Assembly: GCF_965237495.1 (NCBI RefSeq)
Contig: NZ_OZ250143.1
Location: 515,918 to 579,917, forward strand
Length of the DNA stretch: 64,000 nucleotides
From: Candidatus Palauibacter sp.
Lineage (GTDB): Bacteria; Gemmatimonadota; Gemmatimonadetes; Palauibacterales; Palauibacteraceae
Direction of reading: 5' to 3'
The translations under genes were made by a program, and so were the position numbers. Below, in pieces: positions 1 to 52,058 of the stretch; position 1 is the stretch's first letter, and each line of letters starts with the position of its first letter. The notes below the pieces were generated by a model that did no database searches, was not told the DNA's origin, and was given only the letters and a program-made list of their open reading frames with translations.

Positions 1-292
1 ACCGATTGGCCCCGCGCGGGGCGAGGGCGATGACTGCTTACCTGCTCAGAACCTTTCGCTGTGGCGATCGTAAGCCATCGCTCAAGGAATTGGTCCCGGG
101 TCATACCCCGGCCATCGTCACGCAAAATGAACAGCTCAGCGCTCCGATAATAGTCGACCTCCACCCGGGTGGCGTACGCATCGTGAGCGTTCTTGAACAG
201 CTCGCTGATTGCGGTGGGGATCCCCGCGATTTGCTGTCTGCCCAGCATGTCCAGGGTTCTGGCCCGAGCCTTGAACGTCGCTTCCATGGCAG

Positions 293-1393
293 TCAGAGGA
301 GTCCGGCGTCCGCTAGGTGCTCGTTCATATGGTGGCCGAAGACGGTCGCAAGCCTGACGGGCACTGCATTCCCGATCTGGCGGGCCATCGAGCTAAGGCT
401 TCCGTCGAACTCGTAATCCATCGGGAACGTCTGCAGGCAGGCGGCTTCGCGAACGCTGATCGCGCGGTCCTGCTGGGGGTGGCCGAAGCGGCCGTTCGAG
501 TAGCTGATGCAGCGCGTCGTCAACCCCGATGCGGGGCGGTCCCAGGACATGCGGCCGTAGACATCACTGTACCCGTTGGACCGGCGGTGGCACTCAAGCC
601 GGAGACCGTCGGGCCAGTCGCGGTTACCCCCTCCCTCAGGCGTCGCGCGGATACGCCGAAGGTTGCGTTCGGAAAGCCTGGCGGCACGGTGATCCGGCAC
701 ATCTGGGTGCGTCTGCCCTGCGGCGATCTCTGGAAGTTCCTCGATCCAGTCCCGCACGGTGTCGTACTTGGGGTTGTCGGTCTCGGGGCCGTGGGACTTG
801 GGAGGCAGTTCCAGTGGCCCGTGTCGGCTCGCAAGCAACAGCAGTCTGCGACGGCTCTGTGGGACTCCGTACTTCTTGAGCGACACGGCCCCGTACGCTG
901 GCTCGCAATAGCCAGCCTCCCGGAGTCCGCGCACGAATCCGCTTAGCGGCTCGGCGTCGCGCCTTGGGTTCTGGATTCCCGGTACGTTCTCGACGAAGAC
1001 GATGTCCGGCTCGCATCGCCGAATGAACCGCAGGAACTCCAGCAGCAACGGGACCCGGTCATCCTTGTCTGGTTCGGGGCGGGATGTGTTCTGTTTGGTG
1101 AACGGCTGGCACGGCGCACATCCGCAGAACAAGACCGGCTGGGATCTCTGAGTTCGGACGAGGCCGTGGACCATATCCACGTTCGTCTCTCGGATGTCGG
1201 CGTGCTCGAAATGAGCGGACGGAAAATTCTTCTCGAAGGTGCTCTTGGCGTCGGCGTCGGCATCGAGGGCGAACACCACCTCCAACCCGGCGTTCTGGAA
1301 GCCCCGGCTGGCCCCGCCGCAACCCGAGAAGAAGTCGAATACCTTGACTCCGGGGAGGGAATCGACCTCCAAGCTCTCGCTGCATGAGTTCAT
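293..1393 (-). CDS. DNA (cytosine-5)-methyltransferase; solitary, Dcm-like
   Basis: Motif I FDFFSGCGGASRGF (FxGxG AdoMet site), PC catalytic motif GCAPCQPFT, ENVPG motif IV and QSRRRLLLLASR motif VIII. The ORF-track frame extends to 1654, but the conserved core begins at the internal ATG at 1393 (MNSCSES...). Confidence 0.85.
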   Translation of the reverse strand: MNSCSESLEVDSLPGVKVFDFFSGCGGASRGFQNAGLEVVFALDADADAKSTFEKNFPSAHFEHADIRETNVDMVHGLVRTQRSQPVLFCGCAPCQPFTKQNTSRPEPDKDDRVPLLLEFLRFIRRCEPDIVFVENVPGIQNPRRDAEPLSGFVRGLREAGYCEPAYGAVSLKKYGVPQSRRRLLLLASRHGPLELPPKSHGPETDNPKYDTVRDWIEELPEIAAGQTHPDVPDHRAARLSERNLRRIRATPEGGGNRDWPDGLRLECHRRSNGYSDVYGRMSWDRPASGLTTRCISYSNGRFGHPQQDRAISVREAACLQTFPMDYEFDGSLSSMARQIGNAVPVRLATVFGHHMNEHLADAGLL

Positions 1394-1599
1394 TTCGGGG
1401 TGGCATCTCCGCTGGACCGTGGCGGATTGCCGGAGATGAAAGACGCCGAGATGGGCTTGCGGTCGAACTCCAACCGGAACCGCCACCAACTCCAACCCTG
1501 CCCCGAACTTCCCCTGCCCGAACCCGCCGTTGCCTCGCACCGTGACGGTAAGTCCGCCCGCACGCGGGGTCAACCGGAACTCCGAATCGCGGTCGCTGG

Positions 1600-3321
1600 T
1601 TGGCGGATTGCCTTGCGGGGCGTTCTGCGGCAAACTCCGTGCCATGCAACGCAACGTATGGAGCCCAGCGAGTTCCTGTCGTTCGATTCCGCCGGACCGG
1701 GCGCGGTAGACTGGTGCGTACGCCGTTCCACATCCGGTGGGCGCCAGCGAACGCCCCGGAGGAGGGTTCCCCGCCGCCGCCGGAGCAGGCCCGGTTCCAG
1801 GAGCTCCTGCGCGAGTTGTTCCAGTTCGACTGCGCGGATCTGGATTTCGGCATCTACCGGGTCATGAACCACAAGCGGGAGGTCATCGACCGCTACATCG
1901 ATCGGGAGCTGCCGGGCGCCATCGAGGAAGCCGTGAGCCAGGGGGGGCTCGAGACCGAGGCGAGGCGCGCCGACACCTTCGAGGAAACGCGAGCCAGCGT
2001 GATCGAGGTCTTCGGGGAAGATGTGCTCGCACCCGACGGAACGCTACTCCAGTATGAGGAGACCCCGCTCGGACAGAAGTACATGCTGTGGCGTGCGCGG
2101 GCCCGCCACTCCGAGTCCGCCGGGGACGTGCGGCGCGACATCTACAACCACCTGTACGCCTTCTTCAGCCGGTACTACCAGGACGGCGATTTCGTTCCGA
2201 AGCGGCGCTACTCGTGGGAGCACCCCTACGTCGTCCCCTACAAGGGCGAGGAAGTTCATTTCCACTGGGCCAACCGCGACCAGTACTACGTGAAGGCGGC
2301 GGAGCACTTCAAGGATTACACCTACCGGACTCCATCGGGAATCTCCGTCCGCTTCTTCCTGCGCTCAGCGCACGTCGAGCGGGACGACGTTAAGGGCAAG
2401 AAACGGCTCTTTTTCCCCCTGCCGAACGCTGCGGTCTGGGACGGGGATCGCCGATTGCTGGACCTGCCGTTCGATTATCGCCCGCTGACTTCGGCCGAGG
2501 CGAAGCACTTCGGAAGGAAGGGACAGCAGGAAGCCATTCTGGAGCGCGCCGAAGCGACCGTTGCCGACGCGCTCGCCGCGATGCCGGAGGCGGCGCTGGC
2601 GCTGCTCGACAAGACAGCGGTGAGTGAAGACGACGCCGCGCCGACCCTGTTCGCGCACCACGCACAGCGATTTGCTCGAAAGGTTACGTCGGACTACTTC
2701 ATTCACCGTGATCTGAAGGCGTTCCTCGGCCGGGAGCTGGACTACTATCTCAAGTCGGAGGTTCTGGGTCTCGGCACGCTCGAAGCTGGGGGCGAGACGA
2801 GGGCCGACGCCTGGCTGGACAAGATGCGCGTTATCCGCGAGGTGGGCGGAAACATCATCGACTTCCTCGCTCAGATCGAAGGCTTCCAGAAGATGCTCTG
2901 GGAGAAGCGGAAGTTCGTCGTGGCCGTGCAGTACTGCGTGGCCGTCCGACTGCTTCCCGAGGAGCTTCGGTCCCGCGTCCTGGAGTGCGACGCGCAATGG
3001 GACGAGTGGTGCTCCCTGGGCTGCATCGTGGACGACGACTCCCTGTTCGCAGCGGGTGAAGATCCGATTGCCCGCGGCGACTTCTTGGAACGCAATCCGG
3101 GGATTCTCCTCGACACCCGACACTTCGACTTGGCATTTGTTGACGATCTGCTGGTGGCGCTCGACGACATCGACGAGAAGACGGACGGCGTGGTCGTAAA
3201 GAGCGAGAACTGGCAGGCGCTGGATCTGCTGGAGGAGCGGTACGGGGGACAAGTTGATTGCATTTACATTGACCCACCGTACAACACGGGCAACGATGGC
3301 TTCATCTATAAGGACCAATAC
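1600..3321 (+). pseudogene. mod: Type III-like N6/N4 DNA methyltransferase (mod), N-terminal fragment; interrupted by IS3-family insertion after ...DPPYNTGNDGFIYKDQY
   Basis: A beta-class MTase motif IV, CIYIDPPYNTGNDGF, lies at the very 3' end of the fragment. The reading frame runs into the IS inverted repeat and reaches a stop at 3349-3351. It resumes in-frame at 4660, and the YQHSSWASM segment there matches the region after DPPY in Type III Mod proteins. An N-terminal extension of ~450 aa before DPPY has no recognisable family. The true start is uncertain; 1600 is the first ATG. Confidence 0.75.
3318..3321. repeat. Target-site duplication ATAC (left copy) of IS3-family element; right copy at 4656-4659
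   Basis: Identical 4-mers directly abut both IS termini. Confidence 0.7.
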
Positions 3322-3439
3322 TGGAGCTGTCCCGCTTTCACGGACGGTTAGTTTCTGTGGTTGATCGTCTCCGGTGTTGCTCCTTTCAGTCCCTCTCAGG
3401 CGCTCGGGAGAGGTTCCGGGTGTACGCCTCCGGTGCGCC

Positions 3440-4288
3440 TCAGGCCGCATGGTTCCTCTCGTAGTTGGCCGGCGACTCGTAGCCGAGGGCGGAGTGAAGC
3501 CTGCGCGTGTTGTAGAAGCCTTCGATGAAGCCGAAGACCTCTCGCCGTGCCTCGGCCGCGGTGCGGAACGAGCGCCGCCAGATCAGCTCGCACTCCAGCG
3601 TCGCGAAGAAGCTCTCGCACATGGCGTTGTCGTAGGCGTCGCCCACCGAGCCCATGGACCGCGCGATGCCCGACGCGCGGCAGCGCTCCCCGAAGGCGAG
3701 CGAGGTGTACTGCGAGCCTCGATCCGAGTGATGAACGACGCGCCCTTCGGGGCGGCGCCGCGCGAGGGCCATCGCCAGCGCGGCCTCGACCAGCTCGGTC
3801 CGCATGTGCGTCGCCATGGCCCAGCCGACGACGCGGCGGCTCCAGACATCGAGCACGACGGCCAGATACAGCCAACCCGCCCATGTGGGCACGTACGTGA
3901 TGTCGGCCACCCACAGCCGGTCGGGCCCCGAGGCCGAGAAGTCCCGCCTCACCAGGTCCGGCGCGGGCCGGGCCTCGGTGTCCATCTTCGTCGTCGCCGT
4001 CTTGAAGCGCCTCCTGGTCGCGCCCTCGATCCCCATCGCCCTCATCAGCCGCCCCACGCGCTTCTGGCCCACCCGCTCGCCCTCGGCCCTGAGAACCGCG
4101 TGGATCCGCGGACGACCGTACGTCTCGCCGCTGCCGGTCCAGATGGCCTGGATCTTGTCTTGAAGTTCGTCGTCCCGCCGCGCCCGCGCCGAGGCAGGAC
4201 GCTTCAGCCAGGCGTAGTAGCCGCTGGGGGAGAGACCCAGCACCCGGCACATGGCCGCCAGAGGAAACTCGGCCCGGTGCGCCTTCAT
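3440..4288 (-). CDS. IS3-family transposase OrfB (DDE integrase core)
   Basis: Integrase-core motifs LWVADITYV, HSDRGSQYTS and NAMCESFFATLECE. It sits in the -1 frame relative to orfA, and that frame stays open upstream of the first Met. Confidence 0.9.
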   Translation of the reverse strand: MKAHRAEFPLAAMCRVLGLSPSGYYAWLKRPASARARRDDELQDKIQAIWTGSGETYGRPRIHAVLRAEGERVGQKRVGRLMRAMGIEGATRRRFKTATTKMDTEARPAPDLVRRDFSASGPDRLWVADITYVPTWAGWLYLAVVLDVWSRRVVGWAMATHMRTELVEAALAMALARRRPEGRVVHHSDRGSQYTSLAFGERCRASGIARSMGSVGDAYDNAMCESFFATLECELIWRRSFRTAAEARREVFGFIEGFYNTRRLHSALGYESPANYERNHAA

Positions 4289-4599
4289 GAACGCGTACCC
4301 CCGCCGGGGATCGCTCCGCTCTCCCTCGCGAACCAGGCCGCGGCTCTTTTTAGGATGTCACGCTCCATCCGGAGCCGCTTGTTCTCCCGCTTCAGACGCG
4401 ACATCTCCTTCCCCGTCTCCGTCGTCAGACCGTCTCTCCGCTCTCCCTCGTCCAGCTCCCCCTGTCTGACCCAGTTGCGGATCGTCTGCTCCGAGGGCTC
4501 GAACTCCCGCGCCAGCGACCCCGCGCTACGACCGGCACGCGCGAGTTCCACCAGCCGCTCGCGGTACTCCGGCGGATACCGCCCCGCTCTTCCCGCCAC
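4285..4599 (-). CDS. IS3-family transposase OrfA (HTH plus leucine zipper)
   Basis: YPPEYRERLVELARAG...SLAREFEPSEQTIRNWVRQ HTH followed by an LKRENKRLRMERDILKRAAAWF zipper. A GTG start at 4599 is preceded by AGGAGG with a 6-nt spacer. The ORF-track start at 4725 lies outside the IS. A CTAAAAAGAG (A AAA G) slippery run sits near 4345-4353. Confidence 0.8.
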   Translation of the reverse strand: MAGRAGRYPPEYRERLVELARAGRSAGSLAREFEPSEQTIRNWVRQGELDEGERRDGLTTETGKEMSRLKRENKRLRMERDILKRAAAWFARESGAIPGGGTRS

Positions 4600-4659
4600 G
4601 ATACACCTCCTTGGTTCCCCAATGGAAAGGTGTCCGTGAAAGCGGGGCAACTCCAATAC

Positions 4660-6225
4660 CAGCACTCGAGCTGGGCGTCGATGGTCAGCCAGGCGGTCAA
4701 CCGTTCCGTGGCTTACGGTTCGCATCGCTCCGCCATCTTCGCGTCGATCGACGAGGGAGAACAGCCGATCTTTCGTTTTCTCCTCGATGCCAGTTGGGGT
4801 TCACACAATCATGTGGCGGACATGGTGTGGGCCTCGGGCCGCAAGAACGACTCGCGGCTCATCTCGGTATCGCACGAATACATCTTGGTGTACGCCCGTG
4901 ATCGCGAATCCCTCCGTACTCATGGGATCCGTTGGCGACAGCGGAAACCCGGCCTCGACGACATCTACGCCTGCCACAAGAGGCTAAAGCGGCGGCACGG
5001 TGACGACTACGCTGCGATCGAGCGTGACCTGAAGGAGTGGTTCCGCAGCCTACCGGGCTCCCATCCGGCCCGAAGGCAGAAACACTACAACCGCGTGGAC
5101 GCACGCGGCGTTTATTTCCCCGACAACATTTCGTGGCCGGGGACCGGCGGTCCGCGGTACGACGTGATCCATCCCGTGACGGAAAAGCCGACAAAGGTGC
5201 CAGCGGCAGGGTGGCGACTCAAAGAGGAAACGATGAAGCGGTGGATTGCGGAGGATCGGATCCATTTCGGCGAGGATGAACACAGCGTGCCCAAACGGAA
5301 GTCGTATCTGCGCGAGCACGAGCACGAGGTACCGTATAGCGTGTTCTACCAGGATGGCCGCGCCGCCACGAAGCGGCTACGTGCCGTGTTGGGTACGGAC
5401 GACGTGAGCTACCCGAAGGACGAGACCGTCATAGCGGAGTGCATTGAAATGGCGGCGGGCGCGGGAAGCACGATTCTCGACTACTTCGCCGGATCTGGTA
5501 CGACCGGCCATGCCGCGATCAACCTCAATCGTGAGGACGGGGGACGACGCAAGTTCATTCTGGTGGAGATGGGACACCGGTTCGACACCGAGATCATGCC
5601 GCGGCTCAAGAAGGTGGCGTTCTCCCCGGAGTGGCGGAACGGGGCCGCGAAGCGGGAGGCCACGGCGGAGGAGTCCGAGCGCGGCCCGCGGATCATCAAG
5701 TACTTCCGTCTGGAGAGCTACGAGGACGCGCTGAACAACATCGAGTTCGAGGAGGTGGAGGAGAGCCTGTTCGAGCTGGAGGACTACCTGCTGCGCTACA
5801 TGCTCCAGTGGGAGACCAAGGCGAGCGCGACCCTGCTCAACGTCGCGGCGTTCGCGCGGCCGTTCGACTACAAGCTGCGGCTGGGCGGGAACGGTGATGG
5901 CGCGGACGAGACCGTGGATCTCGCCGAGACGTTCAACTACCTGCTCGGCCTAAAGGTGCATGCGCGCCGGACATACGACGACGACGGGCGCCGCTATCTG
6001 GTCTACGCGGGGGAGACGTGGGACGGCAGCTCTGCGGTTATCATCTGGCGCGACACGGAGGGATGGACGGCGGAGGACCGGGAGCGGGACCGGGATTTCG
6101 TGGCGAGGCACGACATGACGGCGGGTGCCGACGAGATCTGGATGAACGGGGACTCCATGGTAAAGGACGCGCGGCCGCTGGACGCGCTATTCAAACAGCG
6201 CATGTTCGCGTCCGCAGACGGCTGA
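4660..6225 (+). pseudogene. mod: Type III-like DNA methyltransferase (mod), C-terminal fragment with AdoMet motif I
   Basis: YQHSSWASMV follows the DPPY motif once the IS is excised. Motif I is TILDYFAGSGTTGHAAINL. The stop TGA at 6223-6225 overlaps the res ATG. Confidence 0.75.
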
Positions 6226-9200
6226 TGACCCCCGGCCGCCCCGGCACCATGCTCCGCCGCCTCGAGGCGGAACTCCTGCTGTTGGGCTGGGCGAACCGGC
6301 AGTTCGGGTTCGAGACCAACCAAGCGCTCTTTGACGCCTTGAAGGATGCTCACGAGGGGTACGAGGACGGCCGCAGCCATGTCGCGCGCATGCTTCTGAG
6401 CCGGGAGCGCCTGATGGTTCCCGCGGACGACCTGGCCCGCTACGACGACAACGTGCGCCGCCATCTCGACTCCATAAACAAGGGACGGCGCGAGCCCATC
6501 ACCCTGCGGTATTTCCAGCAACTCGCGGCGCTGTACGCGGAACTCTTCTTGGCCCGGCGCGCTGCGTCCCCCGAAGCCCTCGCACGGCAGCTCCACCGGT
6601 ACGTCCGGGAGAAGGTCCACGGCCTGGGCACCTCCTACCCGGTGCGGGAGATCACTCCGGACGACCTGAACAAGCTCGCGTTCTGGATGGCGACGGGGAG
6701 CGGCAAGACGCTCATCATGCACCTCAACTACCTCCAGTTCCTGCACTACGGCGGGGCGGAGGGCCTGGACAACATCATCCTCATCACGCCCAACGAGGGG
6801 CTGAGCGCCCAGCACATGGAGGAAATGACCACGTCCGGCATCCCGTCGGCGCGTCTCGGCGAGGCCGGGCTGCTGGCGGGCGGCCGCTGCACCGTGCGGG
6901 TGACCGAGATCACCAAGCTTGTCGACAAGCGCCGCGGAAAGGGGACGGGTGTCAGCATCGAGGTCGAGGCGTTCGGCGACCGCAACCTCGTGTTCGTGGA
7001 CGAGGGCCACCGGGGCGCGAGCGGGGAGGCGTGGCGAGCGGTGCGCGACGCCGTGGCCGCGCGCGGCTTCACCTTCGAGTACAGCGCCACCTTCGGGCAG
7101 GCGCTGGCGGCGGCGCGCGACAACCAACTCACCCTCGACTACGGCAAGTCGATCCTCTTCGACTATTCGTACCCGTATTTTCACCGGGACGGGTTCGGCA
7201 AGGACTTCCGCGTCCTCAACGTGTCCGGCAAGGACCCGCCGCCAGAGCTGGCCGACCACCTCCTTTTCGGCAACCTCCTCTCCTTCTACGAGCAGCTCCG
7301 CGCCTATCGCGAGAACGCCGCCGAGCTGCGCGCCTACAATCTGGAGCAGCCGCTGTGGGTGTTCGTCGGCAAGAGTGTGAACGCGGTCTATAGACGTCGC
7401 GGGCGTGACACGAGCGACGTGCTCGCCGTGCAACTCTTCCTCCACCGCGTGCTCAACGAGCCCGACTGGGCGCGGGAGACGATCGGGAAGCTGCTGCGCG
7501 GCGAGTCGGGGCTGTACGCGGCGTGGAACGTGGACCTGTTTGCGGACCGCTTCAACGAGTTGGCGAAGCTCGGGGAGTCCCCGGATCGGATCTACGCCGA
7601 CATCCTCCGCACCGTGTTCCACGCCGATGGCCCCGGCGGGCTGCGCCTGTGCGACATCCGGGGCGCGCCCGGCGAACTCGGCCTCAAGGCGTCCGGGTCG
7701 GACGACTACTTCGGCCTCACCTACATCGGAGACACGGCGAAGTTCAAGCGGCTGGCACGGGAGGCAGAGGCGGGGATCATCTTCGAGGAGGACGCGGTCG
7801 GCGGCTCGATGTTCGGCCGGGTCAACGAGGCCGGGGCCACGGTCAACGTCCTCATCGGCGCCAAGAAGTTCGTCGAGGGCTGGAACTCATGGCGCGTGTC
7901 GAACATGGGCCTCATGAAGGTGGGACAGGCGGAGGGCTCCGAGATCATCCAGCTCTTCGGCCGCGGCGTGCGGCTCAAGGGCAGGGGGATGTCCCTCAAG
8001 CGGAGCACCTATCTGGAGGGTCCGCACCCGGACAAGGTGGGGCTCCTGGAGACGCTCAACATCTTCGCCGTGCGCGCCGACTACATGAAGAAGTTCCGGA
8101 CCTATCTGGAGCGCGAGGGACTCGAGGCGCGGGACAGCGTGACGCTGCGCGTGCCAGTCCGGGCCAACGAGGAGTTCCTGGGCCGGGGGCTCGTGGTTCC
8201 GGCCCTCCCGGAAGGAACCGACTTCGAGACGGAGGCGAACTTCGCGCTCGGTGCCGGCGCCGGGCTTCCGGTGCAGATCGACCGCGCCACGCGGGCCTCC
8301 TCGTGGGAGAGCGGTGCCCGCGGTCAGTCGGCGACGGAGGGAACGGCCGGGCACAGCCGTCCCGCCTCGGAGCTGCCGCTGGCGCTGGTGGATTGGGAAA
8401 GGGCGTACCTCGACCTCATGGAACACCGGCGGCAGAAGGGGATGCGGCCGCTGGCCGTCCCCGGGCCCGACGCGCTTCGGTCGCTCGTCGAGAGCGGGGC
8501 CGCCACGGTGTCGGCCGACGAGCATGTGTTCGAGCCCCGCAACTGGCACGACCGGGAGGACCTGCAAGCGATCGTGCACGCGGTGCTCCGGCGAACCGCG
8601 GACCGGTGCTGGCAGACCGAGCGGCGGACGTGGGAGGCCGAGCGCATGAAGTACCGCGAGGTGGACGCCGCCGATCCCAACCTTCTGCTGAACGTCGACC
8701 CCGAGGCGGCCAGCGCCTGGCCCGGCGGCCCCCAGCCTCACTATGTGGTTAGCGTCCCGCACGCCGACGCCGGTCTTCGCAACGAGCTCGTGGAACTCAT
8801 CGAACAGCGGGGCAAGCTCTACGAGCAGGAACTCGGCCCGCTCGCCCGCATCCACTTCGACCGCCACCTGTACCAGCCGCTGCTGATCGAGTCCTCGAAC
8901 GCCGACGTGAGGATCTCCCCGCCGCCGCTCAACGAGAGCGAAAAGCGGTTCGTCCGCGATCTCCGCGATTGGTGGGTGGACCGGGGCAGCGCCCTTCACC
9001 CCGGTGCGGAACTGTTTCTGCTCCGAAACCAGGGCCGGGGCTGCGGCGTGGGCTTCTCACTCGAGGGCCGCGGCTTCTACCCGGATTTCATCCTGTGGCT
9101 CATCGAGGGAGGCCACCAACGCGTCGTGTTCGTCGAACCGCACGGCATGCTCCACGCCCGCGCCTACGCCGAGGACGAAAAGGCCCGCCTACACGAGCGC

Positions 9201-9413
9201 CTATCCGCCCTCTCCGACGCTATCGCCGAGCGCAGCGGCGTCCCTGCGGGCACCGTGTCTCTCGACGCCTTCATCGTGTCCGCCACCCCCCACGCCGAAC
9301 TCCGCCCCCACTACGACGACGGCTCCTGGAGCCCCGAGGACTTCGCCAGCAAGAACATCCTCTTCCCGGACCCACGCCGCCGCTACATGGAGACCCTCCT
9401 CGCCCGTCCATAG
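6225..9413 (+). CDS. res: Type III-like restriction subunit (res): SF2 helicase domain plus C-terminal nuclease-like domain
   Basis: Walker A AFWMATGSGKTLIM, motif II LVFVDEGHRGAS and motif VI QLFGRGVRLKG. C-terminal YPDFILWL...VVFVEPHG block. ATG at 6225 overlaps the mod stop, which implies translational coupling. The ORF-track start at 6018 would overlap mod and is probably a spurious upstream extension. Confidence 0.75.
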   Translation: MTPGRPGTMLRRLEAELLLLGWANRQFGFETNQALFDALKDAHEGYEDGRSHVARMLLSRERLMVPADDLARYDDNVRRHLDSINKGRREPITLRYFQQLAALYAELFLARRAASPEALARQLHRYVREKVHGLGTSYPVREITPDDLNKLAFWMATGSGKTLIMHLNYLQFLHYGGAEGLDNIILITPNEGLSAQHMEEMTTSGIPSARLGEAGLLAGGRCTVRVTEITKLVDKRRGKGTGVSIEVEAFGDRNLVFVDEGHRGASGEAWRAVRDAVAARGFTFEYSATFGQALAAARDNQLTLDYGKSILFDYSYPYFHRDGFGKDFRVLNVSGKDPPPELADHLLFGNLLSFYEQLRAYRENAAELRAYNLEQPLWVFVGKSVNAVYRRRGRDTSDVLAVQLFLHRVLNEPDWARETIGKLLRGESGLYAAWNVDLFADRFNELAKLGESPDRIYADILRTVFHADGPGGLRLCDIRGAPGELGLKASGSDDYFGLTYIGDTAKFKRLAREAEAGIIFEEDAVGGSMFGRVNEAGATVNVLIGAKKFVEGWNSWRVSNMGLMKVGQAEGSEIIQLFGRGVRLKGRGMSLKRSTYLEGPHPDKVGLLETLNIFAVRADYMKKFRTYLEREGLEARDSVTLRVPVRANEEFLGRGLVVPALPEGTDFETEANFALGAGAGLPVQIDRATRASSWESGARGQSATEGTAGHSRPASELPLALVDWERAYLDLMEHRRQKGMRPLAVPGPDALRSLVESGAATVSADEHVFEPRNWHDREDLQAIVHAVLRRTADRCWQTERRTWEAERMKYREVDAADPNLLLNVDPEAASAWPGGPQPHYVVSVPHADAGLRNELVELIEQRGKLYEQELGPLARIHFDRHLYQPLLIESSNADVRISPPPLNESEKRFVRDLRDWWVDRGSALHPGAELFLLRNQGRGCGVGFSLEGRGFYPDFILWLIEGGHQRVVFVEPHGMLHARAYAEDEKARLHERLSALSDAIAERSGVPAGTVSLDAFIVSATPHAELRPHYDDGSWSPEDFASKNILFPDPRRRYMETLLARP

Positions 9414-9454: not shown

Positions 9455-9877
9455 TCACGAGATTCGCCAGAGCCGCAAAGTCGAGATGGCCCCGGCTCTC
9501 GCGGTGCGACGTACATATCGTTCGTCCGCCGTGACGAACACGCCCTCGAGCCCGAGCGCCGCGGAATGGTACGCCGCGTCGTAGAATGCGACTCCGTACG
9601 TCACACACAGAGACACGGCACGGCTTCTCCAGTGGGAGTCCAGCCGCGCCTCGGTAAGGCCGAAGTCGGCCAGCGATGCCAGAAGCTCGCCAGCATCATC
9701 GGGAAACCGCCTCGCCAGCGTGTTGCCCACCTCGTAGATCCAGAGCTGTGGAACGACCAGATCAAGGGTCCCGGCCACCGCTTCGTCACGCAACGCGAGC
9801 GCCGCGTCTGTATCCTGCTCGTCGTCGCCCGGAAGAACCCACTTGAGAAGAACCGACGCGTCGGGCGTTACGATCAC
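9455..9877 (-). CDS. vapC: PIN-domain toxin (VapC-like)
   Basis: PIN signature VIVTPDASVLL...DTDAALAL...VVPQLWIYEVGN...FYDAAYHSAA...VFVTADERY. GTG start at 9877 forms a GTGA overlap with the antitoxin stop. Confidence 0.7.
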   Translation of the reverse strand: MIVTPDASVLLKWVLPGDDEQDTDAALALRDEAVAGTLDLVVPQLWIYEVGNTLARRFPDDAGELLASLADFGLTEARLDSHWRSRAVSLCVTYGVAFYDAAYHSAALGLEGVFVTADERYVRRTARAGAISTLRLWRIS

Positions 9878-10107
9878 GGCAGCCGTTGCTCCCGCTCTTC
9901 CCGTATCCACCGGACGATCTGGTCGGTCTCGACTGCGGGCAACCGCGCGCGCAGTGCGTCCATCCGGGCGGAGGCGTCTCGCCTCCTGGAAGCACGCGAC
10001 CACTCCCGGATCGCGGCGTTGACGGCGCGGCTGCGCGTACCGCGCGGCAGCCTCTCGATGACCCGCCACGAGTCATCGTCCAGCATGATGTTGACCCTTC
10101 GCGCCAT
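9874..10107 (-). CDS. vapB: Ribbon-helix-helix (CopG-like) antitoxin
   Basis: MARRVNIMLDDDSWRVIERLPRGTRSRAVNAAIREW RHH fold. Located immediately upstream of the PIN gene with a 4-nt overlap. Confidence 0.65.
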   Translation of the reverse strand: MARRVNIMLDDDSWRVIERLPRGTRSRAVNAAIREWSRASRRRDASARMDALRARLPAVETDQIVRWIREEREQRLP

Positions 10108-10212: not shown

Positions 10213-12078
10213 TCAGGCCTCGCGGGCGGCGGCGGCCGCGCGGCGCATCGCCTTCTTCCGCTCGTTCGGGTCCAGGAGGCGCTTGCGGAGGCGGATGGCG
10301 TCGGGTGTGACCTCGATCAGCTCGTCGTCGTTGATGAACTCGAGCGCCAGTTCCAGCGTCAGTACGCGCGGCGGTTCCAGGCGGACGTGCTCATCCGCGG
10401 CGGCGGCGCGCATGTTCGTGAGCTTCTTGCCCTTCGACACGTTGACCTCGAGGTCGCCCGGGCGGACGTGCTCCCCCACGAGCATCCCGCTGTAGACTTC
10501 GACGCCCGGCCCGATCAGCATCTCGGCCCGCTCCTGCAGATTGAAGAGGGCGAAGGCCACCGACGTCCCGGGGCGGTCGGCGACGAGCACCCCCTTCCGC
10601 CGGTGTTCGAGATGGCCGGCACGGGGTCCGTACTCGAGGAACCGGTGGTGCAGCTGGCCCTCGCCGCGCGTATCGGTGAGGAACTCGGAGCGGTATCCGA
10701 ACAGGCCCCGCGAAGGGAGTTTGAAGTCGAGCCGAACGGGCCCCTGGTCCGTCGGCCGCATCGACAGGAGTTCCGCACGCCGGCTCCCCATCTTCTCCAT
10801 CACCACGCCGACCATCTGAGCGGGGACTTCGATCACGGCCTCCTCGTACGGTTCGAGGATCTCGCCGCCGGGACCCTGGCGCAGGATGACGCGGGGGCGC
10901 GAGACGGAGAACTCGTATCCCTCGCGCCGTATCGTCTCCATGAGGATGGTGAGGTGCAGTTCCCCGCGGCCCGAAACGGCGAAGGTGTCGGGCGATTCCG
11001 TGGGCTCGACGCGGAGGGCGACATTCCGCTCCAGTTCGCGGAAGAGGCGCTCGCGGAGCTGTCGGGTGGTGACGTACTTCCCCGTCCGACCGGCGAACGG
11101 CGCGTCGTTGACCCGGAAGTCGACCGCCAGGGTGGGCCGCTCGACCGCGATCCCCCGCAGCCGCTCCCGGTGGTCCGGGTCGGCCACCGTCTGGCCGATT
11201 TCCACCCCCTCGAGTCCCGCCAGCGCCACGATCTCTCCGGCGCTCGCGCGCGGCTTCTCGATCCGTTTCAGCCCCTCGAAGCCGTAGATCCGAACTACGC
11301 GGGACGGGATCGCCTCGTCGGCCGCGACCGGCCCCGGCTCTCCGAGCGGAAGCAGAACGACGCGATCCCCCTCGGCGACCGCGCCCCGCTCGATGCGGCC
11401 GATGGCGATGCGGCCGACGTAGGCGGAGTGATCCAGCGTCGAAGCCAGCATCTGGAACGGTCCCGCGGCATCGCCCGTGGGAGGAGGGACCGCCGAGACG
11501 ATCGTCTCGAACAGCGGCTCCAGATCTCCGCCGCGCGCCTCGATGTCCCGCGCCGCCCACCCCTCACGTCCGCTCGCGTACAGGAAGGGCGCGTCGAGCT
11601 GGGCCTCGGTGGCCTCCAGCTCCATAAACAGCTCCAGCACGTCGTCGTGCACCTCCGCCGCGCGCTGCTCGGGCCGGTCGACCTTGTTGATCACGCCGAT
11701 GGGCGCGAGCCCGAGTGCGAGCGCCTTCCGCGTCACGAAACGCGTCTGCGGCATGGGGCCCTCGACCGCGTCCACCAGCAGGAGCACCCCGTCCACCATC
11801 CGCAGGATGCGCTCGACCTCGCCCCCGAAATCCGCGTGGCCCGGCGTGTCGACGATGTTGATGCGGGTCTCGCCCCAGCGCACCGCCGTGTTCTTGGACA
11901 GGATCGTGATCCCGCGCTCCCGCTCTAGCGGGTTGGAATCCATGACGCGGTCCTCCATCCGCTCGTGCGACTGGAAGGCGCCCGCCTGCCGCAGCATGTG
12001 ATCGACGAGCGTCGTCTTTCCGTGATCGACGTGGGCGATGATCGCGATGTTACGGATGTCCCGTCTCTGGGGCGTCAA
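10213..12078 (-). CDS. typA: Translational GTPase TypA/BipA
   Basis: IRNIAIIAHVDHGKTTLVD G1 motif, DTPGHADF and NKVDRP, with EF-G-like domains. Length is 621 aa. Confidence 0.95.
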   Translation of the reverse strand: MTPQRRDIRNIAIIAHVDHGKTTLVDHMLRQAGAFQSHERMEDRVMDSNPLERERGITILSKNTAVRWGETRINIVDTPGHADFGGEVERILRMVDGVLLLVDAVEGPMPQTRFVTRKALALGLAPIGVINKVDRPEQRAAEVHDDVLELFMELEATEAQLDAPFLYASGREGWAARDIEARGGDLEPLFETIVSAVPPPTGDAAGPFQMLASTLDHSAYVGRIAIGRIERGAVAEGDRVVLLPLGEPGPVAADEAIPSRVVRIYGFEGLKRIEKPRASAGEIVALAGLEGVEIGQTVADPDHRERLRGIAVERPTLAVDFRVNDAPFAGRTGKYVTTRQLRERLFRELERNVALRVEPTESPDTFAVSGRGELHLTILMETIRREGYEFSVSRPRVILRQGPGGEILEPYEEAVIEVPAQMVGVVMEKMGSRRAELLSMRPTDQGPVRLDFKLPSRGLFGYRSEFLTDTRGEGQLHHRFLEYGPRAGHLEHRRKGVLVADRPGTSVAFALFNLQERAEMLIGPGVEVYSGMLVGEHVRPGDLEVNVSKGKKLTNMRAAAADEHVRLEPPRVLTLELALEFINDDELIEVTPDAIRLRKRLLDPNERKKAMRRAAAAAREA

Positions 12079-49167: not shown

Positions 49168-50664
49168 ATGACCCGACCTTCGATCTACTTCCGGGCCGCC
49201 GCGGCGGCGCTCGTCTTCCTGTTCTTCCTGCCTCTACTGACCGGCGTTCCCGGAGCCGACGGCGTGCGGGCCGCAGCCCAGGAGAAGGCCGCGCAGGATC
49301 CCGGGGTCGGCGAGGCCCTGCACCTGCTCGACGTGTGGATGGACGCCGCGCAGGCGTATGAAGGGATCCCCGGCGCCTCCCTCGCCGTCGTGCACGACCA
49401 GGAGCTGGTGTGGGCGAAGGGGTACGGCTACGCGCATGTGGAGCGGAAGGAGCCGGCCACCCCGTCGACGATGTATTCGATCTGCTCGATCTCGAAGCTC
49501 TTCACCTCGGTCGGCGTCCTGCAGCTGCGGGACCAGGGGAAGGTGAGGCTGGACGATCCGGTGGCGAAGCACCTGGACTGGTTCACGATCAAGGACGGCT
49601 TCCCCGAGGCGGGACCCGTCACGATCGAAGGTCTCCTCACTCATTCTTCGGGTCTGCCGCGCGAGGCCGCGGCCCCGTATTGGACCGGCCCCGAGTATCC
49701 CTTCCCGACGCACGAGGAGATCGTCGATCGGCTTCCGTCACAGGCGATGCTCTACCCGCCCCGGACCTACTTCCAGTACTCGAACCTCGCGCTCACCCTG
49801 GCGGGGGAGATCGTCGTCGCCGCGTCGGGACACTCGTTCGACGACTACGTGCGCGCGAACATCCTCGACCCGCTCGGGATGTCGAGCACGTTCACGGATC
49901 TCGACGATCGCTTCCGTGGGAACCGCCTGGCGAGTGGGTACACGGCGCGGGGGCGCGACGGGAAGCGCGGGCTCGTGCCCGACTACCGGGTGCGCGGCAT
50001 CAGCCCGGCCGCCGGGTTCATCTCGACCGTGGAAGACCTGGGGCGCTTCGCCTCATGGCAGTTCCGCGTCCTCGACGGCGACGACTCGCTACTCGACCGC
50101 AACACGCTGCGCGAGATGCACCGCGTGCACTGGCTCGAGCCGGACGGGGAGACCACCTACGGGCTCGGCTTCTCCGTGTGGAAGTCCGACGGCGACACCT
50201 TCGTGGGCCACGGGGGCTCGTGCCCCGGCTATCGGAGCCAACTCCTGCTGCGCCCGCGGGACCGGATCGCTACGACGTTCATGACGAACGGGTCGGGGGT
50301 GAACGCCCGCAGCTTCGCCCAGACGGCGTTCGACATCGTGGCCCCGGCGCTTCGGCGCGCGGCGAAGGGCGAGGCGGGCAAGGCCGCCGACGGGGCATTA
50401 CAGCGCTACACCGGCGCCTACCAGCGTCCGCTGGGCGGCGAGAGCGCCGTCCTCGTGTGGGACGGCGACCTGCACGTGCTGTCGCTCCCGTCCGGCAACC
50501 CGCTCGACGCGATGGAGCGACTCCGCCGCATCGAGGGCGACACCTTCCGCCGCGTACGGGACAACGGCGACCTGGGCGAGGCGTTCATCTTCGAGGAGAT
50601 GCCGGACGGCGCGATGCGCATGTGGCGCAACAACAACTTCAGCGTGCGACCGGCCGGGTTGTGA
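49168..50664 (+). CDS. Serine hydrolase, class-C beta-lactamase-related, secreted
   Basis: Signal peptide, then the SxxK motif in CSISKLF and YxN-type downstream motifs. Confidence 0.8.
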   Translation: MTRPSIYFRAAAAALVFLFFLPLLTGVPGADGVRAAAQEKAAQDPGVGEALHLLDVWMDAAQAYEGIPGASLAVVHDQELVWAKGYGYAHVERKEPATPSTMYSICSISKLFTSVGVLQLRDQGKVRLDDPVAKHLDWFTIKDGFPEAGPVTIEGLLTHSSGLPREAAAPYWTGPEYPFPTHEEIVDRLPSQAMLYPPRTYFQYSNLALTLAGEIVVAASGHSFDDYVRANILDPLGMSSTFTDLDDRFRGNRLASGYTARGRDGKRGLVPDYRVRGISPAAGFISTVEDLGRFASWQFRVLDGDDSLLDRNTLREMHRVHWLEPDGETTYGLGFSVWKSDGDTFVGHGGSCPGYRSQLLLRPRDRIATTFMTNGSGVNARSFAQTAFDIVAPALRRAAKGEAGKAADGALQRYTGAYQRPLGGESAVLVWDGDLHVLSLPSGNPLDAMERLRRIEGDTFRRVRDNGDLGEAFIFEEMPDGAMRMWRNNNFSVRPAGL

Positions 50665-50987
50665 GAGCGCGGGCCACCAGGGGGGGGCGGTGACCGTGTC
50701 CGGGACTACCTGAGACGCCCTCCTATGTCGCCGCCACATAACAAAGTGCGGACTACTTCGCGCGTGCCGGGCAACGTCACTTTGTAGTGAGCCTTGGTTA
50801 ACGTTCGCCGCACCAGCGGGTGCAGGATTTCTCCGTGTCCCAGAATCGGACGCAACCGAACACGGCTGTCACCCGTATCCTCATTGTTCCCGGGCAGCTG
50901 CAAGGTACACTGCTGGTCGCTGCAGGATGTGACCCGGCAGGGGAGGGGCAGGCGCTCGCGCACGGCTCGTATCCAGTCTGACAGCCC

Positions 50988-52058
50988 TCAATCCCCCTGC
51001 AACCGGCTGTCGATCGTCGCCCAATCGTCGTACAGGGTCTCCGCGACCGCCGGATAGCCGGCATCGTACATCCCGTTGTCGGAATCGAGCCGGAGTTCTC
51101 GCGTCTCGGTTCCGCCCGTCTCGCTGGGCAAGAACTCCCAGACTCCTACTTGGCTGGCGGGAAGCGAGATATCTCCAGCTTCGAGATCGCTTCGCTGGTC
51201 GTCGGACAGATCCGACATGCGACAGATGTTGGCCAACGCGGAAAGGATCCAGTCGCTGTGGACCGTGACAATTACGCGGATGCCGGCCGCCACGATCCGC
51301 GCGAGTTCGGTCGTGAGCTGGACCTGCATTGCGGGGTGCATATGGGCTTCCGGTTCCTCGATAATCAGTGTGGAGCCGGGCCTGGCCTTATGACGGAGAT
51401 ATAGCACGAGCGGTATAATCTCCGTCACCATCGACGCCGTCCGTGTTAGGGGAAGATCTTCCTCCCATCTGACAGGTCGATAGTGGACCGATGGGGGGCC
51501 GGCATCTCCATCCTCCACGCGGACCGATCCGCGAAGGACGGCCTGCTCTACATGATGCGCGAGAGCGTCTCCGTTCTCCCAGCCCGAGGGTTCGGCTGTC
51601 AAATCAACAAACATATCTCTGACATAGTCACTCAGGACACCGGACATGGGAGCGGTCAGGCGCTCTCTCGGTCCGCGTGTCGCCCTCTCAAGCAGCAAAT
51701 TGATGATCGCTTGCTGAACTTCGACTCCCACAGAACGAAGTACAGGCAAATAGTTCGCCGGCCGGGAGATGGGTCCCACCGTACCGGGCTGGGCCAAATC
51801 GGCGAGCACGAGCTCCAGAGCTCTGGGATTGATGGGACTACGGTCGATCGACTGTTCAGGTGCACGCCGCCAAAAGAAACCGGGTCGTCGCGCACGGAGC
51901 CAATAGGGTCCGCCCCGCTCGAGCCGAATCGGTGCATCCTCTTGAACCGACAGCTCCCAGAAAGGCTTATCGTGCACAATCTTGAAACCATAGCGAAACT
52001 GTGGCGGGTCCCGCGGGGTCCCGGGGGGGCTATGACTCAGCGCAATCGCAGCTTCGGA
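50988..52058 (-). pseudogene. AAA_21-family ATPase (OLD/Gabija-like ATPase class), C-terminal fragment; gene split by IS1182 insertion
   Basis: Walker B/D-loop block LIIEEPEAHMHPAMQ. The reading frame is continuous with the N-terminal fragment once the 1655-bp IS is removed (...LVRK|SEAAIALS...). Confidence 0.7.

Follow-up and report, generated by a model that had tools for sequence, protein, structure and literature searches.

A probable long-form Type III-like restriction-modification pair with an insertion sequence-disrupted mod gene in Candidatus Palauibacter sp.

We analyzed a 64,000-nucleotide stretch of the genome of Candidatus Palauibacter sp. (Gemmatimonadota; contig NZ_OZ250143.1, positions 515,918 to 579,917 of the forward strand; hereafter the window), in which a long methyltransferase gene, mod, is followed by a res gene. 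The two genes probably form a two-gene, long-form Type III-like restriction-modification (R-M) system in which mod has been inactivated by an insertion sequence (IS) and the N-terminal module of Mod acts as a scaffold for assembly or coupling. In this genome, mod is an IS-disrupted pseudogene. Once restored, Mod comprises an N-terminal module, a beta-class N6-adenine methyltransferase (MTase) core, a target-recognition domain (TRD) and a C-terminal domain. The long-form family is already catalogued, and its N-terminal module is uncharacterised.

The mod gene is split by an IS3-family element

The first-pass annotation, made from the letters and their open reading frames (ORFs), had described mod as one contiguous protein of about 1095 amino acids (aa) and had overlooked the IS. 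A plus-strand ORF from TTG 1600, which encodes the peptide FQELLRELFQFDCADLDFGIYRVMNHKR..., runs into the IS and stops at 3351 after ...DPPYNTGNDGFIYKDQYWSCPAFTDG, leaving, from GTG 1714, a 545-aa product (P0001). A second plus-strand ORF (4630-6225) resumes ...LQYQHSSWASMV... and carries the remainder of the N6_N4 methyltransferase. The contiguous protein was obtained only after removing 3322-4659 in silico, which gave a Mod of 1057 aa from GTG 1714 or 1095 aa from TTG 1600. The restored Mod was 88% identical to the intact 1058-aa homolog P0121, with no gaps over the whole length, the junction (IYKDQY, then QHSSWASMVSQAVNRSVAYGS) included; the insertion was therefore a clean, simple event. 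The possibility that the stretch after the IS (WASMVSQAVNRSVAYGS) is frameshifted or decayed was ruled out, since this stretch is identical in P0121. In the public annotation of this genome (locus L087) the gene is split likewise, with 545-aa and 514-aa products around two transposase genes.

The element had the size (about 1.2-1.5 kb), TG...CA repeats, overlapping orfA/orfB arrangement and 3-5-bp target duplication of the IS3 family (Table 1). Its termini are imperfect inverted repeats, TGGAGCTGTCCCGCTTTCACGGAC / TGGAGTTGCCCCGCTTTCACGGAC, complementary at 24 of 27 nucleotides (89%) and with TG...CA ends. It is present once in the window (single blastn match), 14 codons past the DPPY motif of mod.

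The start of mod was placed at GTG 1714. P0001, the product of the Prokaryotic Genome Annotation Pipeline, starts there and is 100% identical to the translation of the 5' fragment, and the homologs P0121 (MRTPFHIRW) and P0006 (MITPFHIKW), 72-88% identical, start at the equivalent position. TTG 1600 overlaps the divergent dcm ORF and was judged about 38 codons too far upstream because all three proteins begin at the equivalent of GTG 1714. The earlier claim of more than 550 residues before DPPY was correct in that the extension is real and more than 500 residues precede the motif: 557 from TTG 1600, and 519 from the better-supported GTG 1714. The suggestion that the true start might lie far downstream, near DPPY, did not agree with the homolog starts.

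Among 296 positions with a conservation of at least 90%, the restored Mod departed from the family at only 12 (family median, 7), and because the deviations are so few, the comparison suggests that the insertion is recent. At aa 177 (window 2242-2244) the window copy has Lys where 94% of the family has Asn, changing IPYNGEE to VPYKGEE. The change, one of the 12, may reflect early decay once the IS had inactivated mod, or it may be a variant of the lineage. Apart from N177K and similar near-invariant substitutions, the window copy retains every family invariant of the first 520 aa. In Candidatus Multivorans (L020 and L050), the homologous mod is also split, with kilobases between its N-terminal and C-terminal parts, and insertional disruption of the long mod gene may be recurrent.

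Restored Mod contains a Type III core

The order of motifs in Mod, IV then TRD then I, is that of the beta class, and Pfam N6_N4_Mtase was matched at 1.4e-21. Residues from about 481 to 850 correspond to the classical Type III Mod core, with sequence homology ending at about 842. A phmmer search against PDB sequences matched the Mods of EcoP15I (7.8e-53), H. pylori (1.9e-29) and Mbo45V (6.4e-23), and homology to the solved Mods began at query residues of about 473-494, equivalent to residues of about 88-98 of the H. pylori and Mbo45V proteins. A full-length AlphaFold2 (AF2) model of an intact homolog had a predicted local distance difference test score (pLDDT) of 75.8 and a predicted template modelling score of 0.67. 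Its best Foldseek match in PDB was EcoP15I Mod (8e-23; 610 aligned columns on a 616-residue chain), followed by 6k0w (H. pylori Mod), 7dsu (Mbo45V Mod) and then generic beta-class MTases. These matches of sequence and model identify the central part of Mod as a bona fide Type III Mod core.

After the FAGSG motif, which binds S-adenosylmethionine (AdoMet), we counted 245 residues, in agreement with the roughly 230 given by the first-pass annotation, though about 200 residues past motif I is usual in Mods of this type: alignment puts motif I of EcoP15I Mod (644 aa) near residue 440. At the sequence level, the last ~200 aa were matched only by two PADLOC Mod profiles, PDLC03646 and the 816-position PDLC03638. 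The TRD is variable, with a mean pairwise identity of 0.25 in the family and a column conservation of 0.20-0.43, and family comparison showed that it is swapped independently of the remaining protein.

Profile matches place the pair in a catalogued long-form family

In PADLOC, Mod matched the MTase_III profile PDLC03646 at 1.3e-163 (1057 positions), its N-terminal 500 aa alone at 4.6e-75, and Res matched the REase_III profile PDLC03654 at 1e-135 (1154 positions). PDLC03646 also covers the Mod of an E. coli plasmid over 1-1044 of its 1057 positions, and PDLC03654 likewise covers the Res of that plasmid. By these matches, the window pair is a full member of a long-form family already filed as Type III in PADLOC. 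The idea that the pair is a variant rather than canonical Type III system was thus half right: it represents a distinct clade that is not EcoP15I-like, but one catalogued as Type III. In the same way, the N-terminus aligns end to end with catalogued PDLC03646 Mods but not with EcoP15I-type Mods.

When aa 1-479 were used as a phmmer query against the full library, 2442 cluster representatives were matched at E<=1e-3 and 816 at E<=1e-30. Among the matches listed, the domain was always N-terminal, and complete proteins were about 1000-1090 aa long; full-length Mod homologs measured 1010-1075 aa. A pattern scan of one genome per species found the family in at least 527 species of many phyla. Distant relatives, with 29-37% identity in the N-terminal domain, are carried by haloarchaeal replicons and by plasmids of E. 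coli/Klebsiella, Priestia, Athalassotoga and Hymenobacter.

The Thermus phage phiLo (178 kb; L088, MH673673.1 15376-20582) carries a Res homolog with 44% identity over aa 26-809. It also has short remnants of a long Mod, namely a 188-aa ORF with motif A and a 115-aa ORF with the C-terminal tail, which adjoin a small unrelated methylase and a putative transposase. By its sequence, this copy looks like a degraded or remodelled system in a phage, and no phage carriage beyond this degraded relic was found.

The N-terminal module is highly conserved and matches no known family

The net extension relative to classical Mods is about 390-480 aa. The first-pass annotation could not assign this region, and we likewise found no Pfam or NCBIfam family in the N-terminal 500 aa at E up to 10, nor a solved structural relative; a GerPC match to the same 500 aa was spurious (E 0.23). 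In PADLOC at E up to 10, the only matches of these 500 aa were two MTase_III profiles. The second, PDLC03638 (816 positions), recognises the distal half (aa ~318-500), and therefore the part of the extension exclusive to the long family is approximately the first 315 residues. Searches of the module against PDB sequences with a single sequence (phmmer) and with a 112-sequence profile gave no match.

The module is as conserved as the catalytic core, with an average column identity of 0.52-0.83. Residues 151-200 have the highest column identity of the whole protein (0.83), equal to that of the AdoMet-binding region. Across Gemmatimonadota, Enterobacteria, Thermotogota, Bacteroidota, Bacillota and haloarchaea, 64 positions in the first 520 are invariant and cluster in four blocks: DLDFGxYR; FFxRYYxxGDF..R.Y....Y.IPYxGEE....WA...QYY.K..E; DYFIH..L..FL..EL..Y.K.E; and FLAQ.E.F...L..K.KF. 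In motif A, L43, D44, F45, G46, Y48 and R49 are invariant from bacteria through haloarchaea.

Structure modelling of the N-terminal region, which the first-pass annotation had proposed, produced a model of aa 1-536 (AF2, pLDDT 70.9) without a credible Foldseek relative: the best match was E 0.55 in PDB (CorA) and E 0.08 in BFVD, neither of them credible. In this model, a helical bundle (23-154) is followed by a beta-rich subdomain (172-256) and then by a helical subdomain (260-397) that includes a 45-residue helix; a small alpha/beta region (402-496) leads into the MTase. The most conserved block, aa 165-198, had low confidence (pLDDT 35-46) in both AF2 predictions, and its confidence was not raised in the full-length model of the intact homolog. 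Such low confidence would be expected of an interface element that becomes ordered only in a complex.

Table 1. Features of the mod-res locus in the window
Feature	Position	Strand	Description and basis
mod 5' fragment	1714..3321	+	codons 1-536 of restored 1057-aa Mod; ORF list, translation, P0001, homolog starts
N-terminal module, family-specific (aa 1 to about 480)	1714..3153	+	negative searches, AF2 models, conservation
Motif A (aa 28-55)	1795..1878	+	FQxLLRELFQFDxxDLDFGIYRIMNxKR; family alignment
Motif B (aa 150-202)	2161..2319	+	FFSRYYxDGDF..RRY....Y.IPYxGEE....WAN.DQYYVK..E....Y; alignment, AF2
Motifs C and D (aa 325-401)	2686..2916	+	TSDYFIHRDLxxFLxRELDYYLKSEV ... FLAQIEGFQKMLWEKRKF; alignment, PDLC03638
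MTase motif IV, DPPY (aa 520-523)	3271..3282	+	sequence; Pfam N6_N4_Mtase
Target-site duplication ATAC, left copy	3318..3321	.	sequence
IS3-family IS, 1334 bp	3322..4655	-	inverted repeats, sequence, transposase profiles
IS orfB, 282 aa, HTH_21 and rve DDE transposase core	3440..4288	-	NCBIfam transpos_IS3 9e-107, Pfam rve 2e-26
IS orfA, 104 aa, HTH_Tnp_1	4285..4599	-	Pfam; NCBIfam transpos_IS3 positions 1-84; gene call in L087
Target-site duplication ATAC, right copy	4656..4659	.	sequence
mod 3' fragment	4660..6225	+	codons 537-1057 plus stop; in frame with 5' fragment once 3322-4659 is removed
Variable TRD (aa about 561-790)	4732..5421	+	family conservation, pairwise identities
MTase motif I, FAGSG (aa 812-816), AdoMet binding	5485..5499	+	sequence
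Conserved C-terminal domain (aa about 850-1057)	5599..6222	+	profile matches, conservation
res, 1062 aa	6225..9413	+	ORF, Pfam, PADLOC, motif conservation, L087 gene call

The Res partner has a conserved ATPase and an atypical nuclease motif

With the IS removed, mod (1714-6225) is followed by res (6225-9413) in the gene order of Type III systems. The ATG of res overlaps the stop codon of mod (TGATG), and the two genes are translationally coupled. Res carries the superfamily 2 (SF2) helicase motifs GSGKT (aa 158-162) and DEGH (aa 259-262), which are invariant or nearly so in 67 homologs, as well as SAT and QxxGRGxR-type helicase motifs. Near its C-terminus is a PD-(D/E)xK-like motif, YPDF...FVEPHG (aa 953-973, window 9081-9143), with D954, E971 and H973; the surrounding block ...FYPDFILW...Q(R)IVFVEPHG is conserved, as is E929 upstream. 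No nuclease family was matched. Res also had a faint match (0.0031) to another REase_III profile of PADLOC. Thus the gene organisation and Mod were those of a Type III system and the Res ATPase was present, while the nuclease motif was atypical and homology to EcoP15I Res was not found at the sequence level by phmmer.

Res is the conserved neighbour of mod and co-varies with the N-terminal module

Across 80 related loci, Res is the only conserved neighbour of mod. A full-length Res homolog (48-92% identity) lies downstream of mod in every related locus with enough DNA, and after mod and res were masked, no other ORF family occurred in more than 17 of the 80 loci, the commonest being a nucleotidyltransferase gene of toxin-antitoxin type. 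The neighbourhood check that the first-pass annotation had proposed therefore supported the mod-res pairing and disclosed no further partner.

We compared pairwise identities across 59 Mod-Res pairs. The N-terminal module correlated strongly with Res (Spearman 0.94) and with the Mod C-terminal domain (0.87), whereas the TRD correlated with neither Res (0.03) nor the N-terminal module (0.06). The mean pairwise identity was 0.55 for module and Res alike. In the closest Palauibacter relative (L001), the module is 88% and Res 92% identical and the C-terminal domain nearly identical, with an unrelated TRD. Since the N-terminal module tracks Res and the TRD does not, the module belongs to a constant chassis in which specificity modules are shuffled.

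Several loci departed from the simple arrangement. Cargo of 1.5-5 kb lies between mod and res in L002, L015, L018, L021, L023, L027, L037 and L038; its genes (Fic-like with 'THPWITF', nucleotidyltransferase of toxin-antitoxin type, AAA ATPase and DUF262-like) are unrelated to the pair, and it is similar to the cargo that Type I hsd operons often contain. One Longimicrobiales chromosome carries two paralogous long-form Mods about 24 kb apart (L006 and L011), and the nearest Res homolog of the second copy is about 6 kb upstream of mod, not downstream. A third gene stands beside the pair in L081 (E. coli pEC316_2), L082 (Athalassotoga pATS1), L084 (Hymenobacter pHsw1), L085 (a Priestia plasmid) and L037. 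Depending on the locus, its product is either an SNF2 helicase (PADLOC DrmD 2.5e-196) or a UvrD/GajB-like helicase; the Athalassotoga locus also has a gene of the phospholipase D (PLD) family near the pair. These loci suggest that the long Type III-like system has helicase-assisted variants, which are common on IncF plasmids of Klebsiella and E. coli. The helicase gene is not conserved among closer relatives and is not present in the window.

Proposed mechanism and alternative explanations

We regard a two-gene long-form Type III-like R-M system as the likely reading of the locus. By analogy with Type III enzymes, a Mod dimer would read a short asymmetric site through its TRD and hemimethylate an adenine. 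Res would rely on Mod for target recognition, and would use ATP to communicate between unmodified sites before cutting. Because Res would need Mod, the IS in mod should silence both methylation and restriction and leave the cell unharmed. The N-terminal module would be a constant scaffold rather than a specificity element, evolving together with Res and the Mod C-terminal domain, and its most likely role would be in Mod-Res assembly or coupling, where it could either provide a docking platform or regulate the motor and nuclease of Res. Such a structural or coupling role fits the observed co-variation.

Several observations weigh against this reading. The co-variation of the N-terminal module and Res could reflect shared descent of a linked module, not contact. 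The most conserved block of the module, aa 165-198, was modelled with low confidence, and the many invariant D, E, K, R and Y residues might just as well mark an active site or a DNA-binding surface that has gone unrecognised. His occupies the position of the canonical Lys of the nuclease motif in 63 of 67 Res sequences, with Lys in 3; the Pfam match of Res is limited to the generic ResIII helicase domain (8.6e-10), and a phmmer search of Res against all PDB chains, 4ZCF included, gave nothing below E=0.1. Distant relatives have the extra helicase gene, a hint that the family may work by a mechanism other than pure Type III. Both hemimethylation and two-site ATP-dependent cleavage are extrapolated from known Type III enzymes, and literature searches, incomplete in coverage, found no experimentally characterised member of the long family.

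As a tentative alternative, the N-terminal module may have a new fold and an activity or sensing role of its own, and long Type III systems may be a mechanistically separate R-M class. If so, the module might conceivably gate the Res motor and nuclease, bind DNA ends or recruit SNF2/UvrD helicases, although we consider these roles no more than possible.

It is unlikely that the module is an extra enzymatic or nucleic acid-binding domain, such as a divergent nuclease, an NTP-binding or a DNA-clamping domain, which would make Mod bifunctional and the family distinct from Type III. Invariant charged and aromatic residues (D44, Y48, R49, D159, R164, E179, E180, K194, E197, D327, E341, E349, E389, K398 and K400) would suit such a domain, as would the position of block 151-200 as the most conserved part of the protein, and as the module has no structural relative, a new fold or function is possible. 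However, we found no known catalytic motif, no Pfam or NCBIfam family match and no PADLOC family other than the MTase_III profiles; Res already has a conserved ATPase and a nuclease motif; and the spacing from E179/E180 to K194 is unlike that of PD-(D/E)xK.

A larger helicase-assisted system of the kind seen on E. coli/Klebsiella, Priestia and Athalassotoga plasmids, with Mod and Res as its core and an SNF2/DrmD-like or UvrD-like third component encoded elsewhere, for example by the SNF2 gene about 9 kb upstream, is quite improbable. In several distant relatives a helicase gene does lie directly upstream and is oriented alike, in L037 a UvrD-like gene comes right after res, and in this genome a 1034-aa SNF2 gene is located upstream of the dcm cluster next door. 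Nevertheless, the 80 closer loci share no co-conserved helicase family, and the type of accessory helicase varies by lineage, as for an optional add-on. The SNF2 gene here lies on the other strand behind dcm, HATPase, Response_reg_2 and transposase genes, and its N-terminal part matches only one other locus, weakly.

The first-pass annotation had raised a BREX-like or other multi-gene defence methylase. We consider a methylase of the BREX/PglX, DISARM or MANTIS kind, belonging to a multi-gene system other than R-M, highly improbable: what speaks for it is of a general nature (large size, an unassigned N-terminus, and a lower-GC island with defence-type genes), whereas the PADLOC matches of Mod were confined to MTase_III and MTase_II and those of Res to REase_III, with no PglX, DrmMI or Gao_RL. 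Mod is beta-class (motif IV before I), unlike the gamma-class PglX and unlike MANTIS MtsC, an alpha-class enzyme whose partner is a PLD nuclease. No PglZ, BrxC, DrmA/B or AAA+ partner is conserved nearby in the 80 related loci, and Foldseek of the N-domain model returned no PDB match at E<0.5 and no PglX/BrxX among the matches listed. With regard to BREX, only the beta-class N6_N4_Mtase domain was found, without a PglX/Brx profile match for Mod or Res; with regard to class 1 DISARM, Mod had no DrmMI match, and no DrmA, DrmB or DrmC neighbours were found; with regard to MANTIS, the IV-before-I order, a PD..E motif in Res instead of PLD, and no AAA+ partners were found. The suggested profile check for DUF1156 and PglX gave no such match to Mod, and profile results together with MTase class rule out, as far as sequence tools can show, BREX, DISARM, MANTIS, Hma and DUF1156 assignments.

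That the long N-terminus is an annotation or assembly artefact, with the start near DPPY or an upstream gene fused to mod, can practically be dismissed: the TTG 1600 start is indeed about 38 codons too long and overlaps the dcm ORF, but the same N-terminus is contiguous with the methylase in hundreds of full-length homologs (1010-1090 aa), which come from many phyla and also from RefSeq plasmids, and the frame is open from 1714 to 3321 with no stop or frameshift in its translation.

For this genome, the two-gene Type III-like reading implies a horizontally acquired R-M pair whose methylase is IS-inactivated, with restriction probably silenced and a barrier to incoming DNA removed. More widely, a common long Type III-like branch, found from Gemmatimonadota to Klebsiella/E. 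coli plasmids and haloarchaea and filed by pipelines as ordinary 'Type III', carries about 480 conserved residues without a Pfam domain or solved structure. These residues co-vary with a Res that is not recognisably related to EcoP15I Res.

Genomic context

A dcm gene for a C5 cytosine methyltransferase (window 293-1645, minus strand; Pfam DNA_methylase 3e-51) is divergent from mod. Beyond it on the same strand (L087 1-9932) is a gene for a 989-aa HATPase_c_3/HEF_HK protein, the 5' end of which occupies window 1-287, followed by genes for a 537-aa Response_reg_2 protein, a Transposase_mut protein, a 387-aa protein of no assigned type and the 1034-aa SNF2 helicase. PADLOC recognised no system in this cluster beyond generic DrmD-like matches on SNF2. 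These genes may form a defence cluster of their own in the same island, linked to methylation and so far undescribed; a tie of the dcm/HATPase_c_3/HEF_HK/Response_reg_2/SNF2 genes to Mod-Res was ruled out, as none of them is co-conserved in the 80 related loci.

Directly after res lies a VapBC-like pair (9455-10107, minus strand), consisting of a PIN-domain gene (140 aa) and a 77-aa upstream partner, and then the housekeeping GTPase gene BipA/TypA (10213-12078, minus strand). The GC content was 0.64-0.65 at window 1-6000, which includes dcm, mod and the IS, and again at 50001-52000, compared with about 0.68-0.72 elsewhere. These low-GC regions are consistent with horizontally acquired DNA.

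Comparison with known systems

Large defence methylases of other systems resemble Mod in general terms. PglX/BrxX and MANTIS (Gao_RL) MtsC hemimethylate asymmetric sites and have extra N-terminal and C-terminal domains, and MANTIS prefers inverted site pairs. However, gamma-class PglX and alpha-class MtsC work in multi-gene systems with PglZ/BrxC or with AAA+ MtsA/MtsB and the PLD nuclease MtsD, and neither has profile or fold similarity to the N-terminal module in the window.

The classical Type III systems (EcoP15I/EcoPI; Mod 644 aa, Res about 970 aa; 4ZCF, 6K0W, 7DSU) share with the window the mod-res operon, the beta-class N6-adenine MTase core, the variable central TRD, and a Res with an SF2 ATPase, followed by a C-terminal PD-(D/E)xK motif that has an atypical counterpart in the window. 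Classical Mods have about 90-120 residues before DPPY, whereas the window Mod has 519, of which about 390-480 are without counterpart, and its C-terminal ~200 aa are unmatched by classical Mod profiles. The window Res has no phmmer-detectable similarity to EcoP15I Res, and the Lys of the nuclease motif is replaced by His. Type III Mods of the PDLC03638 family (~816 aa) share aa ~318-500 of the window Mod (the FIHxDL...FLAQIE...LWEKRKF helices) and the C-terminal domain; they lack the first ~300 residues and with them motifs A and B, where conservation in the long family is highest.

The long-form pair of the E. coli plasmid pEC316_2, WP_004197497 (1046 aa) and WP_004197500 (1120 aa), shows the same Mod architecture end to end, with a DPPY-TRD-FxGxG core, a long Res with GSGKT, DEGH and a C-terminal nuclease-like motif, and mod followed by res as in the window. 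It differs in having an extra SNF2 (DrmD-like) gene upstream, whereas the window copy of mod is IS-disrupted, and its proteins are only about 30-36% identical to those of the window.

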